This document shows positions 2,153 through 64,000 of a DNA stretch of 64,000 nt, piece by piece. Each line of letters starts with the position of its first letter. Position 1 is the first letter of the stretch. The stretch is taken from assembly GCA_937895935.1 (NCBI GenBank), contig CALBKX010000024.1, forward strand, positions 72,728 through 136,727, written 5' to 3'. This DNA is from an uncultured Clostridia bacterium (lineage in GTDB: Bacteria > Bacillota > Clostridia > Christensenellales > UBA1242). Under the pieces are notes generated by a model. The model searched no databases, was not told the DNA's origin, and worked only from the letters and a program-made list of their open reading frames with translations. The position numbers and the translations under genes are program-made.

Positions 2153-3901
2153 ATGGAAGAAAATGAAAAACAACAAAAAATTCAAATGTGCAGACACTCT
2201 TTGTCGCACGTATTAGCAAAAGCCGTTAAAAATGTTTTTGGTAAAGATAATGTAAAAATTGCTATTGGACCAGCAATTGACAATGGTTTTTATTATGATT
2301 TTGATATGGAACCAATTACTCCAGAAAAATTTGCCGATATTGAAAAAGAGATGAAAGCAATAATCAATCGTAACGAAGAATTTAAAAGAGTTGAAATATC
2401 AAGACAAGAGGCATTGGATTTATTTAAAAATGAACCATATAAAATAGAATTAATTAATGATTTGCCAGAAGGTGAAACAATTTCTTGTTATTATCTAGGT
2501 GATGATTATGTAGATCTTTGTCGTGGTCCTCACGTTGAAAATACTTCAAAATTGCAAAATTATGCATTCAAGATTAACAGAGTTAGTGGAGCATATTGGA
2601 GAGGAAATGAAAAAAATAAAATGCTACAACGTATTTATGTTTATGCCTTCCCAGATAAAAAACAATTAAATGACTATATTAATATGATTGAAGAAGCTAA
2701 AAAGCGTGATCATAGAAAATTAGGTAAAGAATTAGATTTATTCTTTTTTGATGAAACTGCTCCGGGTATGGCTTATTGGTTACCAAAAGGCTTTACTATT
2801 ATGAATACACTTATTGATTTTTGGCGTAAAGAGCATAAACAAAGAGGCTATTTAGAGTTTTCTGCTCCACAATTAAATAGCAGTGTTTTATGGAAAACTT
2901 CAGGTCACTGGGATCATTATAAGGAAGATATGTTTGTTTTGACAGATTCTGACGGCAACGAACAGGCATTAAAACCTATGAATTGTCCAAATTCTATTAG
3001 AATTTACCAAAGTAAAATGCGTAGTTATAAAGATTTGCCTCTTCGTTTAAATGATATTGATGTTATTCATAGAAATGAAAAATCTGGACAATTAAATGGT
3101 TTGTTTAGGGTTAGAATGTTCCGCCAAGATGATTCTCATAACTTTATTAGAAAGGACCAAATAGGCTCTGAAATAAAAGATATTGTTGCACTAATTAGTA
3201 AATTGTATGGGGTTTTTGGATTGCCATATCAACTTACTCTTTCAACAAGACCTAATGACTTTATGGGTGAAATTGAAACTTGGGATATGGCAGAATCTGA
3301 ACTTAAAACAGTTTTAAATGAACTTTGTGGTGAAAATAATTACAGGATTAACGAGGGTGATGGTGCTTTCTATGGTCCAAAAATCGATATAAAAATGAAG
3401 GATTGTTTAGGTCGCGAATGGCAAATGGGAACTATTCAATTAGACTTCCAATTGCCAGAACGTTTTGATTTGACCTATGTTGATGCCGATGGTGAAAAGA
3501 AACGCCCAATTATGGTTCATAGAGCGATTTTTGGTTCGTTTGAACGTTTTATTGGAATACTTACTGAGCATTATGCTGGTATTTTCCCAGTATGGCTTGC
3601 TCCTGTTCAAGTTAGAGTTATGAATATTGCTGAGAGTAGTGAAGACTATGCAAAGGAAATATATTCAAAACTTGATGAGGCAGGTATTAAATGCGAATTA
3701 GACGTCCGTAACGAAAAAATAGGATATAAAATTAGAGAAAGTATTTCTCAAAAAATTCCATATATGGTTATTGTTGGTGACGGAGAAAAAGAGAAAGGTA
3801 CAATTTCCATTCGTGGACGTAGCAATGAAAACGTTTCAGATTTAAAACTAGATGATTTTATCGCACGTTTAAAGGAAGAAATTTCAACATTTAAAAAATA
3901 G
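2153..3901 (+). CDS. thrS: Threonyl-tRNA synthetase (short form lacking the N-terminal TGS domain)
   Basis: 582 aa. Begins at the HxxxH editing/second-additional-domain motif (CRHSLSHVLAKA). Class II core and anticodon-binding domain are recognisable, and a Thr T-box lies upstream. Confidence 0.95.
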   Translation: MEENEKQQKIQMCRHSLSHVLAKAVKNVFGKDNVKIAIGPAIDNGFYYDFDMEPITPEKFADIEKEMKAIINRNEEFKRVEISRQEALDLFKNEPYKIELINDLPEGETISCYYLGDDYVDLCRGPHVENTSKLQNYAFKINRVSGAYWRGNEKNKMLQRIYVYAFPDKKQLNDYINMIEEAKKRDHRKLGKELDLFFFDETAPGMAYWLPKGFTIMNTLIDFWRKEHKQRGYLEFSAPQLNSSVLWKTSGHWDHYKEDMFVLTDSDGNEQALKPMNCPNSIRIYQSKMRSYKDLPLRLNDIDVIHRNEKSGQLNGLFRVRMFRQDDSHNFIRKDQIGSEIKDIVALISKLYGVFGLPYQLTLSTRPNDFMGEIETWDMAESELKTVLNELCGENNYRINEGDGAFYGPKIDIKMKDCLGREWQMGTIQLDFQLPERFDLTYVDADGEKKRPIMVHRAIFGSFERFIGILTEHYAGIFPVWLAPVQVRVMNIAESSEDYAKEIYSKLDEAGIKCELDVRNEKIGYKIRESISQKIPYMVIVGDGEKEKGTISIRGRSNENVSDLKLDDFIARLKEEISTFKK

Positions 3902-16930: not shown

Positions 16931-19900
16931 ATGAATTTTAAAAAAATAGAACTAGCAGGATTTAAGTCTTTTGCTGATAAAATTGAAATAAAATTTGATT
17001 CGGGTGTAACTGCTATTGTTGGACCAAATGGATGTGGTAAAAGTAATGTCGCTGATGCTATTAGATGGGTTTTAGGAGAGCAGAGTAGTAAAAACTTGCG
17101 TGGAACATCTATGCAAGATGTCATTTTTAATGGAACTGAAAAACGTAAAAGTTTATCTTATTGTGAGGTTACACTTACCTTTGACAACACAGACAGATAT
17201 TTTAATTATGACTTTGACGAAGTTGCAATAACTAGAAAATTATATCGTTCAGGTGAAAGCGCTTATTTAATTAATCGTAACGAATGTAGATTAAAGGATA
17301 TTATTAATCTTTTATATGACTCTGGCATTGGTAAAGATGGTTATTCTATAATAGGTCAAGGTAAAGTTGAACAAATTATATCTTCAAAACCAGAAGACAG
17401 ACGTTCAATTTTTGAAGACGCCGCTGGTATTTCAAAATTTAAATCAAGAAAAGTTGAAGCTGAGCGTAGGCTTGAAAGAACTAGAGAGAACATAGCAAGA
17501 GTTAATGATATTGTATCGGAAATTGAAAGACAAATGGGTCCGATGAAAAAACAAGCGGAAAATGCAAAAGCATACTTAGCATACAAAGACCAATTAAAAG
17601 ACCTTGAAGTAAATGCATATATCTTTCAATATGAAAACGCTAAAAATGTTAAAGACCAAATTAATTTAAAAATTAAATCAATTGTTGAAGAATTAAATCT
17701 TGAAAGTGCTAGATTAGAGGAAACTAATGCCAACTATACAAAAAGTATGGAAAGATTAAATTCAATAGACAAAGAAATTGAAAATATACATAATGAAATA
17801 TTACGTTTAACAATTGAAATAGAACAACAATCTGGTGAAATTAAAGTTATTAGAGAACGTTTAAATAACTTAAATTTACAAAAAGATAAATTAAATCTTG
17901 ATGTGTTAAATGCGAATAATGCTTTAATAAAAGATAATGCTGAACTTGAATTTAAAAAACAAAAACAGTCTGATTTGGAACAAAAAATAGGACAATTACA
18001 CTTGTCTTACGATGAAATGTCAAAAGAGTATATTTTACTTGTGGACGAATTGACAGAAAAAGAAGAAGAAGCATCATCCAACCAGCAAAAAATGATTGAT
18101 GCTATGGATAAATTGTCAGATATAAAAAGCAATTTCTCTAAATATCAAGCAGAAAAACAAATGCTTGAAGAAAATTTAAAGGAATCTAATATAAGAGTAG
18201 AAAGTGCAAAAAATTCTTATGCTTCAAAGCAAGAGGAATGTGACTTACTAACGCAAAGTTGTAAAGTATTATTTGACAAAAAAAATGAAACTGCAAAAAT
18301 TTATGCTGATAGCAAATTTAAACAAGATAGTTTGTATTCTCAAATGCGTGATATTGAAAACGACAGACATAATATTAACGTAAAATTACAGGTATATGAA
18401 AATAAAAAACGTATGCTTGAGGATATGCAAAATGCCTTTGATGGCTATCAAATTGCAGTTAAAAAATTACTTTTAGATGCTAAAAATAATGAGAAAATAA
18501 GAAGCAAAATGATGGGTGCTTTAGCAACATTAATAACGGTTCCTCAAAAATATGAAACTGCAATTGAAGTTGCTTTAGGTAATGCAGTTCAAAATATCGT
18601 TACTTTTAATGAACAAGGTGCAAAAGAATTAATTAACTATTTAAAAAGTAATCAATATGGTAGAGCAACTTTCTTACCAATAAGTTCAATTAAATCTAAA
18701 GACCTATATCATTCTGATAAAAAAGTTCTTTCAAAAAATGGTGTTTTTGGAGTTGCAAGTGAATTGATTAGTTATTCTAGTGATATAGATAATATTATTT
18801 CTAATTTACTTGGAACAACAATTGTAGTTGATAACTTAGACATAGCAATTGATGTTTCTCATAGTACAGAATTATCTTACAAAATTGTCACTTTAGATGG
18901 TGATGTTATTAATCCAGCTGGTTCTATGACGGGTGGCTCTCGTAAGCAAGAAGCAGCAAACCTTATCTCCCGTGAAAGAGAAATTCAAACGTTGAGTGTT
19001 GAAATTCAAAAATTTAAGGCTTTGTTGCTAAATAAAAATGCTTCATATGAAGAAATGCAAAAAGAACTGGAATATTTAAAAAATAATATTAATCAATTTT
19101 TAGATAATAAAAATAATGCTGAGATAGATTTTGTTAAGGAAAATGAAAAATATCAACAAGCAAAAATTTCACTTGAAGATTTGAAAGATGAAATTGAAAA
19201 TATGGATGCCACAAATGCACATATTAAGTCAAGAATTGAAGTGATTACACAAGAACTTTCTGGTATTGACCAATTAGAAGAGAAAGCGTTAAATAGCAAA
19301 ACTGAAACGTCTAAGTATATGTCAGAAAAGCAAAATTTATTTAACGAGTTACGTCAAAAACGAGAAAAACTTAGTGAGCAAATGACGCTTATAAAAATTG
19401 ATATTGCCTCAAACGAAGCAGAAAGTAGTGCATTATCAGAAGATTTAATAAGACTCAATCAAGACATAGATAAACAAAATGAAATTTTGTCTAATTTGAA
19501 TCGTGAAATAAATAACATAGATGAAACTATCGCTGAAGGCGAAAAAATGATTTCTTGCCAATTTGAAAAGGCAGAAAACACTGAAAAGAAAAAACAACTT
19601 GACGCAGTAAAAAATAAACAAGTCGCTTTGGATGCTGATAAACAAAATATTCAGGAATTAATTAAACAACTTGATACAAAAAAACAAGTATTAAATGAAA
19701 GTATAGCAAAAATCACTGATAAAAAATATTCTGAAGATTTGCATTTAAGTAAGGTCGACACAGAACTTGAAACGATGCAAGAAAAAATATATGAAGATTA
19801 TTCACTAGTATATGAAACTTGCTTGGAATTTAAGCGTCCTGACTTCGATATTTCTGTTGCAATGCCTGAAATTTACAGAATCAAAAAGGAAATCCAGAAG

Positions 19901-20545
19901 TTGGGGGCAGTTAACATTAATGCGATTGATGATGTTAAAGTTCTTTTGGAAAGATATGAAGAAAAATCCGCTCAAGTTGCCGATTTGAGTAAAGCAGAAA
20001 GTGAGCTTACTGAAATTATAAAAGATTTAAGCAATGAAATGACCACAAGATTTGATACAGCCTTTAAAAAAGTTAGTGAAAACTTTAAAGTTACTTTTAA
20101 GGAATTATTTGGTGGTGGTAATGCTAAATTAGAACTTATTGAAGCAGAAAGTGGTGACCCACTTGAAGCAGGTGTTGACATTGTGGCTGAACCACCTGGC
20201 AAAAAATTGCAAAATATAACTCTTTTATCCGGCGGTGAAAAAGCTTTAACTGCAATTGCAATACTTTTTAGTATTTTAAAATTAAGACCAATGCCTTTCT
20301 GCTTGCTTGATGAAATTGAGGCCGCTCTTGATGATTCAAACGTAGAGCGTTTTGCTCAATATTTAAAACGTTTTTCAAAAGTAACTCAATTCATAGTTAT
20401 AACACATAGAAAACCAACAATGGAACTTGCAGATAGTTTGTATGGTGTCACAATGGAAGAAAAAGGCGTGTCTAGAACAGTAAGTGTTAAACTCGCCGAT
20501 GCAATTAAAAATTTAGAACAGGAGAATAAGAATGGGGCTGTTTAA
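16931..20545 (+). CDS. smc: Chromosome segregation protein SMC
   Basis: Walker A GPNGCGKSN, long coiled coils, hinge, LSGGEKALTAIA signature and Walker B LLDEIEAALD. Confidence 0.97.
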   Translation: MNFKKIELAGFKSFADKIEIKFDSGVTAIVGPNGCGKSNVADAIRWVLGEQSSKNLRGTSMQDVIFNGTEKRKSLSYCEVTLTFDNTDRYFNYDFDEVAITRKLYRSGESAYLINRNECRLKDIINLLYDSGIGKDGYSIIGQGKVEQIISSKPEDRRSIFEDAAGISKFKSRKVEAERRLERTRENIARVNDIVSEIERQMGPMKKQAENAKAYLAYKDQLKDLEVNAYIFQYENAKNVKDQINLKIKSIVEELNLESARLEETNANYTKSMERLNSIDKEIENIHNEILRLTIEIEQQSGEIKVIRERLNNLNLQKDKLNLDVLNANNALIKDNAELEFKKQKQSDLEQKIGQLHLSYDEMSKEYILLVDELTEKEEEASSNQQKMIDAMDKLSDIKSNFSKYQAEKQMLEENLKESNIRVESAKNSYASKQEECDLLTQSCKVLFDKKNETAKIYADSKFKQDSLYSQMRDIENDRHNINVKLQVYENKKRMLEDMQNAFDGYQIAVKKLLLDAKNNEKIRSKMMGALATLITVPQKYETAIEVALGNAVQNIVTFNEQGAKELINYLKSNQYGRATFLPISSIKSKDLYHSDKKVLSKNGVFGVASELISYSSDIDNIISNLLGTTIVVDNLDIAIDVSHSTELSYKIVTLDGDVINPAGSMTGGSRKQEAANLISREREIQTLSVEIQKFKALLLNKNASYEEMQKELEYLKNNINQFLDNKNNAEIDFVKENEKYQQAKISLEDLKDEIENMDATNAHIKSRIEVITQELSGIDQLEEKALNSKTETSKYMSEKQNLFNELRQKREKLSEQMTLIKIDIASNEAESSALSEDLIRLNQDIDKQNEILSNLNREINNIDETIAEGEKMISCQFEKAENTEKKKQLDAVKNKQVALDADKQNIQELIKQLDTKKQVLNESIAKITDKKYSEDLHLSKVDTELETMQEKIYEDYSLVYETCLEFKRPDFDISVAMPEIYRIKKEIQKLGAVNINAIDDVKVLLERYEEKSAQVADLSKAESELTEIIKDLSNEMTTRFDTAFKKVSENFKVTFKELFGGGNAKLELIEAESGDPLEAGVDIVAEPPGKKLQNITLLSGGEKALTAIAILFSILKLRPMPFCLLDEIEAALDDSNVERFAQYLKRFSKVTQFIVITHRKPTMELADSLYGVTMEEKGVSRTVSVKLADAIKNLEQENKNGAV

Positions 20546-61982: not shown

Positions 61983-62011
61983 TTGACATTATTTTAATTT
62001 TATAATAATAT
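61983..62011 (+). promoter_or_regulatory. Sigma-A promoter of the tRNA operon with an A/T-rich UP-like region
   Basis: TTGACA (61983-61988), 17 nt, TAATAT (62006-62011). Long A-tracts immediately upstream. Confidence 0.55.
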
Positions 62012-62298: not shown

Positions 62299-62350
62299 GA
62301 TAATTTTAATTATCAATTAGCATTACATATAACATGTAATGCTACAGTAT

Positions 62351-62426
62351 GCCTCGGTAGCTCAGTCGGTAGAGCAAGGGACTGAAAATCCCTGTGTCGG
62401 TGGTTCGATTCCGCCCCGCGGCACCA
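62351..62426 (+). tRNA. tRNA-Phe (anticodon GAA); acceptor stem carries a U4-C69 mismatch
   Basis: GCCTCGG-TA-GCTC-AGTCGGTA-GAGC-A-AGGGA-CTGAAAA-TCCCT-GTGTC-GGTGG-TTCGATT-CCGCC-CCGCGGC-ACCA. Confidence 0.93.
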
Positions 62427-62592
62427 TGCAGCGGTAGGAATAAACACCGACTTAAGGGATTTCTTATAAATCTCCTGCAAGGCGAGTGGTAAGTCCGCCC
62501 CGCGGCACCATGCAGCGGTAGGAATAAACACCGACTTAAGGGATTTCTTATAAATCTCCTGCAAGGCGAGTGGTAAGTCCGCCCCGCGGCAC
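62411..62592 (+). repeat. Exact 84-bp tandem direct repeat (2 full copies plus a 14-nt third copy) seeded on the 3' end of tRNA-Phe
   Basis: 62411-62494 is identical to 62495-62578. 62579-62592 repeats CCGCCCCGCGGCAC, then diverges. With the preceding T, the shared core is TCCGCCCCGCGGCAC. Confidence 0.97.
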
Positions 62593-62804
62593 ACAAAGGT
62601 AATAATTTCCTTTAAGTTTTTAAATCATGTAGTTATTGTTACCGTGCACCAAGCGACAAAAAATAATTTTTACACAAATTTAGTGAATTTACTTTTAGCT
62701 TGGTAAAACAAAAAACGACACATACCTCCCCTAATTATATAATACATTTTATTGGTAATTTTAGATGTTTTGGTGTTGTTTTTATCTAAATATAAACCAA
62801 TTAT

Positions 62805-63018: not shown

Positions 63019-63028
63019 AATAGGAAAG

Positions 63029-63076
63029 TGCCTCAAAGCCTTAATTTAAAAGGTTTTGAGGCATTTAATTTTTTTA
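63029..63076 (+). terminator. Rho-independent terminator of the tRNA operon
   Basis: TGCCTCAAAGCC (63029-63040) pairs with GGTTTTGAGGCA (63052-63063), followed by a T-rich run. Confidence 0.85.
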
Positions 63077-63401: not shown

Positions 63402-64000
63402 TTAGTCTTTTAATTGTTCAATTTTTGGGTCATTTTGATTATCTACAAAATGGTCTTCATTATCGTCTTCATCTAATATTTTTTTTGAAATATTAGATTT
63501 TTTGATATCTTTTTTGCTAAATTTCTTCTGCTTAGATGTAGGTTCATTTATATTTTCTTTATTTGTTTGATTATCTCTTTCTTCATCAAAATTCTTTTGT
63601 TCTTTATTTAAATCTTTTCTTGATCTATAGGTATCAATATTTTTATATGTTCCAAAAGTATTTATATTAGGATAAAGGTAACCATTCCCATATGGAAGTC
63701 CATAACCATTCATACCAAATCCATTCATCCCATAGCCGTTCATTCCATAGCCATTTGGATACATTCCATTAGGATATCCATTAAAGCCATTTATCCCATA
63801 GCCAAAATTGCCAAAATTAGGATTGTTCATTCCATAGCCCGGGTTATAATTTTTTAAATAATTATCTGGATTATAAACGGGGTTGTTTCTATAATCTCCA
63901 TATATATTTGTGCCTGCGTTTTCGTAAGTGTCGATATTTTTTGTAATACAAGTTTTTGCTGTTACATTTTGCTCTTCGACATCTTTTTCAAAAATATAAT
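63402..64000 (-). CDS. Asn/Gly/Tyr-rich repeat protein with a Lys/Asp/Glu-rich C-terminal tail; 5' end runs off the window
   Basis: The reading frame stays open upstream of the listed ATG (63830) to the window edge (..FEKDVEEQNVTAKTCITKNIDTYENAGTNIYGDYRNNPVYNPDNYLKNYNPGYG-MNNPNF..). GMNG[YF] pentapeptide repeats. Confidence 0.6.
   Translation of the reverse strand, partial: YIFEKDVEEQNVTAKTCITKNIDTYENAGTNIYGDYRNNPVYNPDNYLKNYNPGYGMNNPNFGNFGYGINGFNGYPNGMYPNGYGMNGYGMNGFGMNGYGLPYGNGYLYPNINTFGTYKNIDTYRSRKDLNKEQKNFDEERDNQTNKENINEPTSKQKKFSKKDIKKSNISKKILDEDDNEDHFVDNQNDPKIEQLKD

Follow-up and report, generated by a model that had tools for sequence, protein, structure and literature searches.

Why should a transfer RNA (tRNA) gene be followed by perfect tandem copies of its own 3' end? 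The question is raised by the gene for tRNA-Phe(GAA) in a 64-kb stretch of DNA from an uncultured Clostridia bacterium, hereafter the window, in which the last nucleotides (nt) of the tRNA and the spacer behind them make up an 84-bp repeat. The original prediction made from this stretch offered two answers: (a) that the repeat was a remnant attL/attR pair of an integrative element that had targeted the tRNA gene, or (b) that its units were co-transcribed tRNA-like RNAs with ACCA tails. We arrive at a different one. In the reading that we favour, to which we would give a probability of about 0.5, the repeat is a recently duplicated copy of a lineage-conserved, tRNA-Phe-derived fold-back module, a structured spacer or hairpin RNA in a tRNA operon. 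The module is best read as neither a decoding tRNA nor an integration scar.

A repeat folded back on the tRNA 3' half

The perfect 84-bp repeat said to grow out of the tRNA-Phe 3' end is there. Tandem Repeats Finder reports a period of 84 at 62410-62592, with 2.2 copies, 100% matches, zero indels and a score of 366, and the repeat sets in 17 nt before the 3' end of the tRNA. The 15-mer TCCGCCCCGCGGCAC is found in three copies, at 62410, 62494 and 62578, where 0 were expected from 100 shuffles; neither it nor the family motif described below has another site in the window. The third copy does lose its CCA end, as had been noticed, and reads ...GGCAC followed directly by ACAAAGG, without the final CA.

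The composition of the spacer is where our reading begins. Each 84-nt unit is an imperfect palindrome, made of a 40-nt antisense arm (the I arm) and then a 44-nt sense arm (the D arm). The parts of the locus are as follows:

62351-62426, + strand: tRNA-Phe(GAA), called by ARAGORN and scoring 65.3 bits with the Rfam tRNA model, which flags a U4xC69 mismatch in the acceptor stem; its last 17 nt are the first direct-repeat copy
62410-62424, + strand: direct repeat copy 1, TCCGCCCCGCGGCAC, T60 to C74 of the tRNA; a crossover substrate
62427-62466, + strand: unit 1 I arm, antisense of tRNA-Phe nt 34-73 (TGCAGCGGTAGGAATAAACACCGACTTAAGGGATTTCTTA); an inverted repeat with a 30/40 match, reached in 0/5000 shuffles
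62467-62510, + strand: unit 1 D arm, a diverged sense copy of tRNA-Phe nt 35-76 ending in ACCA; 35 identities, reached in 0/5000 shuffles
62468-62481, + strand: family motif AAATCTCCTGCAAG in the unit 1 D arm, common to the units of relatives
62494-62508, + strand: repeat copy 2 of the 15-mer, within the unit 1 D arm
62511-62550, + strand: unit 2 I arm, identical to that of unit 1
62551-62592, + strand: unit 2 (terminal) D arm, ending ...GGCAC without the final CA; motif at 62552-62565
62578-62592, + strand: repeat copy 3 of the 15-mer, within the unit 2 D arm

The order of the locus is tRNA(D)-I-D-I-D(partial), an alternation of sense and antisense copies of the tRNA 3' half. Collinear homology to tRNA-Phe is limited to the 3' 44 nt of the unit, while the 5' 40 nt are homologous in antisense; in an inverted-repeat search, tRNA-Phe 62384-62405 pairs with unit positions 62442-62463. 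The I arm is nearer to the tRNA than to its own D arm, retaining for example GTCGGTG and ATTCC, and this closeness argues for descent from the tRNA rather than mere shaping to pair with the partner arm. The complementarity of GCAGCGG, which starts 1 nt past the CCA, with CCGCGGC is real at 6 of 7 positions. Its supposed mimicry of tRNA positions 1-9 falls away, since the antisense of an acceptor 3' strand necessarily resembles the acceptor 5' strand. We also considered the unit as a decayed copy of the whole tRNA-Phe, its 5' 66 nt having beaten 1990 of 2000 shuffles against the 5' part of the tRNA. This was dropped when the inverted-repeat search showed the 5' half to be antisense of the 3' half; the likeness to the tRNA 5' part comes from the internal symmetry of the tRNA itself. 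A coding reading of the 84 nt as 28 codons was likewise rejected, the units of relatives being 53-87 nt long and often not multiples of three.

The number of units differs within the species. The same 2.2-copy structure is present in an independent metagenome assembly (L001/L212, ERZ26859173; 99.97% identity over 3 kb), whereas a same-species contig of 278 kb with 100% identical flanks (L213, ERZ27300200) carries one unit where the window and L212 have two. The sole D arm of the one-unit allele is the terminal D arm of unit 2. The difference fits a single unequal crossover, or slippage, between the 15-nt repeats: one crossover between the 15-mer of the tRNA and that of the terminal D arm would leave a middle copy with CCA and a last copy ending in CAC before ACAAAGG. 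The 100% identity of the copies and the one-unit allele together support the earlier proposal of a recent event with amplification through short direct repeats. Two further same-species contigs (L002/L215 and L214) stop at the beginning of the 84-bp repeat or within it, which makes the locus an assembly breakpoint, and many metagenome contigs end within the tRNA cluster (L002, L011, L013-L015, L214, L215).

As an RNA, the unit would fold into a rod. Its minimum-free-energy structure is a rod hairpin of -27.5 kcal/mol (z score about -2.2), which includes the internal hairpin AGGGAUUU/AAAUC(U)CCU singled out earlier. The acceptor-like helix with its ACCA is also present, but A73 and C74 are paired with the 5' leader, and the unit 5' strand pairs with the T-stem 3' strand as well. 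The T-arm-like GTGG-TAAGT-CCGC can be drawn but is absent from the best fold. The tRNA-like fold that had been proposed reaches only -17.1 kcal/mol, or -20.9 at best when constrained, and is thus some 7-10 kcal/mol worse than the rod. In the units the D arm of a tRNA, a 7-nt anticodon loop, U33, R37 and a T arm closed by its own 5' strand are all absent. ARAGORN makes no tRNA call on them, and the Rfam tRNA model (gathering score 29 bits) is silent on them even at E<=10 in the window and in the relatives L027 and L077. Among all Rfam 15 families, only tRNA reaches its threshold in the window, in L027 and L077 and at the longer type B loci introduced below, permissive thresholds included.

Units in related Clostridia and their tie to the tRNA

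Is the module peculiar to this genome? Relatives were gathered with a SpoIIAB scan, one genome per species, which gave 80 loci from uncultured gut and rumen Clostridia; the named ones go under Christensenellales, Christensenella, Catabacter or Candidatus Caccovivens, and identity reaches 89% in the best match. A tRNA-Phe gene is carried by 37 of the 80 loci. In the sister species L012 the tRNA-Phe is identical, C69 included, and is followed by just a 43-nt hairpin, GCAGCGG-AATTGGAATTTATTAACTTAAATTCCA-CCGCGGCAC, a shorter I+D palindrome with the outer stem of the window unit. Units of 53-87 nt, one to three in tandem, lie directly 3' of the tRNA-Phe CCA in at least 12 further species (L017, L023, L027, L031, L032, L068, L077, L080, L082, L086 and L088, with L099 and L144 from metagenomes). 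Most of the long-unit arrays end in a terminal hairpin with a CCA-less D arm (e.g., L023, L077, L082, L086, L088, L144), while those of L068 and L099 run straight into the next tRNA.

What the units share is a motif of about 14 nt, AAATCT[C/T][C/T]TG[A/C]AAG (AAATCTCCTG[A/C]AAG), which is absent from the tRNA, where the corresponding stretch reads AAATCCCTGTGTC. An alignment of 13 units has 13 invariant columns, and all of them except C80 and A84 fall inside the motif (AAATCTC.TG.AA); between these lineages no alignment is possible for the remaining spacers of these tRNA clusters. The inserted T and the xAAG are shared derived characters, and as such they argue for a single origin of the units. 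A search of JGI metagenomes with the motif pattern returned 114 stretches, of which two were real (L099 and L144) and the others were chance matches with no tRNA-Phe nearby. As MAFFT misaligned the 5' arms of whole units, the units were trimmed to the first paired G and a covariance model was built instead; the model, made from the units of eight relatives, has 15 significant matches in 1.155 Mb, all of them directly 3' of tRNA-Phe. The proposed homology of the window units to those of the relatives rests on the common motif, position and architecture. Rfam and literature searches turned up no description of such modules, and by these comparisons the tRNA-Phe fold-back module is a conserved but undescribed element.

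The units are also tied to the particular tRNA beside which they lie. In each species the unit closes with the same 12-25 nt as its resident tRNA-Phe, and the 5' arm can pair with this stretch, a complementarity that holds over four host acceptor sequences (CCGCGGC, CTCRAGGC, CTTTGGGC and CTTAGGGC). The outer helix is 92.5% paired, against 46-58% in slid controls, 5 of its 9 pairs change on both sides, and its covariation score is 0.295 against 0.149+/-0.018 in shuffles, although these numbers lean towards structure, the alignment having been fitted to the model and the 3' strand following the tRNA. The acceptor-like complementarity pointed out in the original prediction is, on this covariation, evolutionarily maintained. 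Further changes of the same kind are seen in L080, with GUGUUC/GGACAC where its relatives have GUGAAC/GGGCAC, and in L082, with CUCUU-GAAA-GAGAG for the CUCCU-GAAA-GGGAG of others. A mismatch at acceptor position 3:70, often joined by one at 2:71, persists across lineages while its neighbours co-vary. The apical loop is of the GNRA type, GAAA or GCAA by species; the GAA in it was considered as a retained anticodon and rejected, three lineages having GCAA there. A duplex of -12 kcal/mol or lower between the tRNA tail and the next 30 nt is formed by 16 of 36 tRNA-Phe genes but by only 4 of 232 other tRNAs, duplex energies having replaced an ungapped antisense count that proved too insensitive.

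The tRNA itself seems to have paid for this association. Acceptor stems of tRNA-Phe in the relatives are perfectly paired, the exceptions being the U4xC69 mismatch common to the window (62354 / 62419) and its sister L012, and C5xA68 in L017. A G in the I arm of the hairpin compensates C69, but the 5' strand of the tRNA does not. Most simply, the D arm of the module would have overwritten the tRNA 3' end, a case of concerted evolution that would have cost the tRNA a mismatch. In the L080 lineage tRNA-derived debris lies on both flanks of the tRNA-Phe gene, with a degenerate partial copy of the tRNA-Phe 5' half (GCCCAGATAGCTCAGTCGGCAAACGCAAGGGACTGAG...) at about 17292-17562, in the Asp-Phe spacer.

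Divergence from the tRNA, together with derived characters shared with the units of at least 12 species, shows, as far as sequence comparison can, that the module is old, and inherited or at least maintained here.

The proposed module and its rivals

The module would be transcribed with its neighbours. It lies in a plus-strand tRNA cluster, Pro-Met-Asp-Phe ... Thr-Tyr by ARAGORN, with 7 genuine tRNAs listed in the window, and two further features bear on its transcription:

61983-62011, + strand: promoter-like site TTGACA-17-TAATAT before tRNA-Pro, found by a consensus scan (10/12 matches; a consensus match only)
63026-63066, + strand: intrinsic-terminator-like hairpin and T run 3' of tRNA-Tyr, a 17-pair stem followed by AATTTTTTTA

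The first is likely the start of the tRNA operon containing the repeat, and the second is its probable end, which would place the repeat within the transcription unit. A terminator scan of 62427-62592 found none, and the site 3' of tRNA-Tyr is the sole terminator-like site on the + strand; the repeat units themselves have no GC-rich hairpin directly followed by a U run. Since a promoter-like site precedes tRNA-Pro and the only terminator follows tRNA-Tyr, co-transcription of the repeat appears likely. The 378-nt spacer between tRNA-Phe and tRNA-Thr in the window holds no open reading frame.

On the reading that we favour, the module would have originated in an old inverted duplication of the tRNA 3' half that folded back at the anticodon-loop side and at the CCA. 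Concerted evolution would since have kept the end of the D arm identical to the tRNA and the I arm complementary to it, and in the genus of the window the module probably overwrote the tRNA 3' end and so gave rise to the U4xC69 mismatch. Copy number would shift when the 15-17-nt repeats of the tRNA 3' end recombine unequally or slip, a single such event leading from the one-unit to the two-unit allele. Co-transcribed within the Pro-Met-Asp-Phe-(Thr-Tyr) operon, each unit would fold on itself into a rod hairpin whose base mimics the tRNA-Phe acceptor helix with its ACCA tail, and this self-folding would keep the antisense arm off the tRNA. The unit is probably then removed by the tRNA-processing machinery, e.g., by RNase P at the 5' side, 1-6 nt past the tRNA CCA. 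It would remain as a structured spacer or hairpin RNA, possibly an acceptor-end mimic. Plant mitochondrial t-elements, mascRNA and the 3'ETS-leuZ of Escherichia coli offer a presumed parallel: they too are structured, tRNA-related or tRNA-adjacent and co-transcribed, excision by RNase P or other enzymes of tRNA processing would be a further common trait, and such spacers can function on their own, but the module here has no cloverleaf.

Several points weigh against this reading. When the entire precursor is folded thermodynamically, the tRNA loses its 3' half to pairing with the antisense arms, and this would do damage if the RNA did not fold during transcription. Of the tRNA-Phe-bearing relatives, over half have a spacer of 1-71 nt and no unit, a patchy distribution from which it follows that the module is dispensable. 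In the close pair L077 and L088 the units differ about as much as other spacers do, and the covariance model based on the relatives misses the units of the window, which have diverged too far. The hairpin mismatches show no G.U excess (G.U 3 against A.C 5; A.G 23/58), so that a strand-specific RNA signature is lacking and palindrome correction at the DNA level could keep the helix. The one-unit contig L213 is a MEGAHIT product, in which collapse of a tandem repeat is possible. Transcription, processing and function of the module are, finally, all inferred.

Some of these points are just what would be expected of neutral or "selfish" palindromic DNA, a rival explanation that we consider unlikely and yet take seriously. 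It holds that a template switch at the tRNA stems made an inverted triplication that is functionless at the RNA or DNA level, and that slippage, gene conversion with the tRNA and quasi-palindrome correction have since maintained this DNA and altered its copy number. The D-I-D-I-D order is of the kind that fold-back or template-switch amplification generates, and the copy-number polymorphism within the species, the patchiness among relatives, the lack of a G.U excess in the stems, the tRNA mismatch apparently imposed by the module and the many contigs of metagenome-assembled genomes that break in the cluster all agree with it. It is at a loss with the unit-specific motif, absent from the tRNA and invariant where the other spacers of the cluster are unalignable. 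A GC-rich neutral insert would, moreover, be expected to decay or to go in a genome of 28-38% GC, and a 3:70 (and 2:71) mismatch that persists beside co-varying pairs is unlike the outcome of blind palindrome correction. The same order of direct, inverted and direct copies, with junctions at short inverted repeats, is known from origin-dependent inverted-repeat amplification (ODIRA) and from DUP-TRP/INV-DUP rearrangements, and by analogy an event of this type is a plausible origin of the module. ODIRA-type amplifications are large, recent and usually eukaryotic, whereas the module here is on a 40-nt scale, ancient and diverged, with conserved motifs in its units. REP/BIME palindromes and the attC sites of integrons resemble it as tandem imperfect palindromes of 50-90 nt with conserved mismatched positions. 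Unlike them, the module is tRNA-derived, has no RAYT or IntI and no R'/R'' box consensus, and is no dispersed repeat: within the 64-kb window and the 1.155 Mb searched it is found at a single kind of site, 3' of tRNA-Phe.

A wider and distinctly speculative proposal takes in longer modules, which we call type B to set them apart from the short units (type A). Type B units of 140-240 nt, sometimes in tandem, follow tRNA-Tyr, tRNA-Thr(CGT) or tRNA-Phe in relatives, and related pieces follow tRNA-Asn:

L040 343-640 and L084 4996-5300: type B after tRNA-Tyr
L055 827-1030 and 11784-12050: type B after tRNA-Thr(CGT) and tRNA-Phe
L058 2629-2915 and L080 17709-17908: type B after tRNA-Phe
L019 19202-19330, L027 20273-20405 and L031 about 19790-19921 (minus strand): terminator and antisense piece after tRNA-Asn

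The type B units after the first three tRNAs have an antisense tRNA piece inside and end in a direct copy of the 3' 20-36 nt of the tRNA; the antisense piece ends where the direct piece begins, with an overlap of GTGTC or GTCG, and in the tRNA-Tyr units the break lies inside the T loop. The tRNA-Tyr unit opens with a terminator and T run that is copied again past the direct copy, and what is duplicated in the tRNA-Phe units is a short hairpin that lacks a T run. The tRNA-Asn modules have no direct copy within 260 nt in L019 and L031, nor within the 133 nt that precede the contig end in L027. The whole scaffold can be aligned between the tRNA-Phe and tRNA-Thr(CGT) units, including a GC-[A/G]AAG-GC hairpin that is also present in the units of tRNA-Asn and tRNA-Tyr (L040). 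Type B could represent miniature remnants of integrative elements whose arms are homologous and whose cores are tRNA-specific, or else a family of RNAs matched to tRNAs. Taken together, types A and B might, in a rather improbable extension, be one undescribed family of tRNA-matched structured RNAs of uncultured gut Clostridia, each an antisense segment and a sense 3'-end copy of its resident tRNA round a conserved hairpin scaffold capped by G(N)AAG, which could mimic acceptor ends or serve as decoys for some factor that binds or attacks the 3' ends of tRNAs, or could act as programmable recombinase guides at tRNA genes. In L017, antisense 3'-end copies were seen after tRNA-Met, tRNA-Gly(CCC) and tRNA-Tyr (2560-2666 on the minus strand, 3071-3136 and 3643-3760), for example GGACGGGGTGGATTC after tRNA-Tyr, whose terminator region is duplicated.

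Direct repeats of a tRNA 3' end are, as Williams reportedly set out in 2002, the classic footprint of tRNA-targeting integrative elements. In its extended form the explanation makes the units scars or miniature non-autonomous derivatives of such elements, built up by accretion of attL, attI and attR, with the junctions of acceptor 3' strand, CCA and inverted copy as recombinase core sites. The attL/attR fragments of tyrosine integrases do consist of direct repeats of the terminal 15-25 nt of a tRNA, CCA included, beside an intact tRNA, and tandem arrays of them can arise by accretion; three direct copies of TCCGCCCCGCGGCAC lie at our locus. Tyrosine integrases adjoin the same tRNA cluster in L012, L049 and L066, the direct copies of type B start at typical integrase crossover sublocations (the T loop and the variable/anticodon region), and the alignment of tRNA-Phe and tRNA-Thr(CGT) type B units across the scaffold, with the recurring hairpin, is in keeping with it. 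We nevertheless regard integration as improbable, and the attL/attR remnant in the form first proposed finds no support in the spacer, which is an antisense plus sense copy of tRNA-Phe and not foreign DNA. In the 37 relatives the next tRNA follows tRNA-Phe within 1-378 nt and no gene, integrase, cargo or foreign DNA lies between, the integrase search having covered homologues of one integrase; no relative in this sample has an element at tRNA-Phe, the very outcome by which, according to the original prediction, the att-remnant reading was to fall. The integrases that were found sit past the cluster's final tRNA. From one species to another the inverted arms are 3 to 6 nt apart, a variation unlike the fixed overlap of a recombinase, and the flank downstream of each repeat copy is duplicated too, which is the pattern of a tandem duplication and not of attL versus attR. 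The conservation of the units across species is a further difference.

Searches of mobile DNA gave the same picture. BLAST of 62300-62700 against phages and plasmids matched tRNA-Phe genes only and nothing of the spacer. In IMG/VR no exact 21- or 23-mer of the spacer was found, the motif pattern gave 6 chance matches and no true one, and the terminal 17-mer of tRNA-Phe occurs inside intact phage tRNA-Phe genes only, plus one chance match. Two of the IMG/VR phage contigs, L224 (1-11719) and L223, carry arrays of up to 27 tRNA genes, among them two labelled tRNA-Pyl by ARAGORN (anticodon CTA, amber-reading) and a tRNA-Phe with the same last 17 nt as that of the window. In L012 the cluster ends with tRNA-Tyr, and immediately behind it, at 796-2378, are a tyrosine integrase of 341 amino acids (1353-2378) and an XRE-type regulator; the stretch from tRNA-Tyr to the integrase gene contains no antisense piece. 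This integrated element is absent from the window, and integrase homologues are likewise placed in L049 and L066.

The second answer, in its strict form a degenerate or D-armless tRNA-Phe gene matured and used like a tRNA, is already largely refuted and highly improbable: the ACCA tail, the 6/7 acceptor-like helix, the internal hairpin and a weak match of the L027 units to an Rfam antisense-tRNA-like model (17-18 bits) speak for it, but against these stand the missing tRNA calls and tRNA parts, the better rod fold, a 5' strand that pairs with A73, C74 and the T-stem 3' strand as a tRNA never does, and an apical loop that leaves no conserved anticodon.

Neighbouring sequence and the meaning of the module

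The wider setting of the locus is that of a sporulation region. The window, read with the standard bacterial code, has a GC content of 25-35% in 2-kb windows; the repeat region is flanked on one side by minus-strand spoIIAA-spoIIAB-sigF, and spoVA genes lie farther on, which identify the host as a spore-forming Firmicute. Downstream of the repeat, at 62640-62705, CCGTGCACCA followed by AGCGAC looks like one more tRNA 3'-end copy in decay, behind which comes a 12-nt inverted repeat (ACCAAGCGACAA / TTTTAGCTTGGT); an earlier unit may have left this trace. The minus strand of 63402-64000, on the way from the tRNA cluster to the spoVA operon, encodes part of a 430-amino-acid protein without a Pfam match, whose full gene is at 14474-15766 of L001. 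It is rich in Gly, Tyr, Asn, Pro and Met, a tandem repeat of 15 bp lies at 63700-63755, and a low-complexity protein like those of the spore coat is a possible identity.

One practical lesson stands apart from the choice between readings: a tRNA 3' end repeated in direct orientation is not, on its own, evidence that anything has integrated. If the module is a by-product, it would be a clean natural case, in a bacterium, of a small inverted triplication seeded by the symmetry of a tRNA gene, of a repeat evolving in concert with an essential gene, to the point of leaving the acceptor stem of the tRNA mismatched, and of a tandem repeat at which metagenome assemblies break. If the module is under selection, as the conserved motif and the co-varying helix suggest, it would represent a new class of structured RNA that copies the acceptor end of a tRNA and is tied to one tRNA identity, and the existence of a recogniser of the tRNA-Phe acceptor helix with its ACCA tail outside translation would become directly testable.

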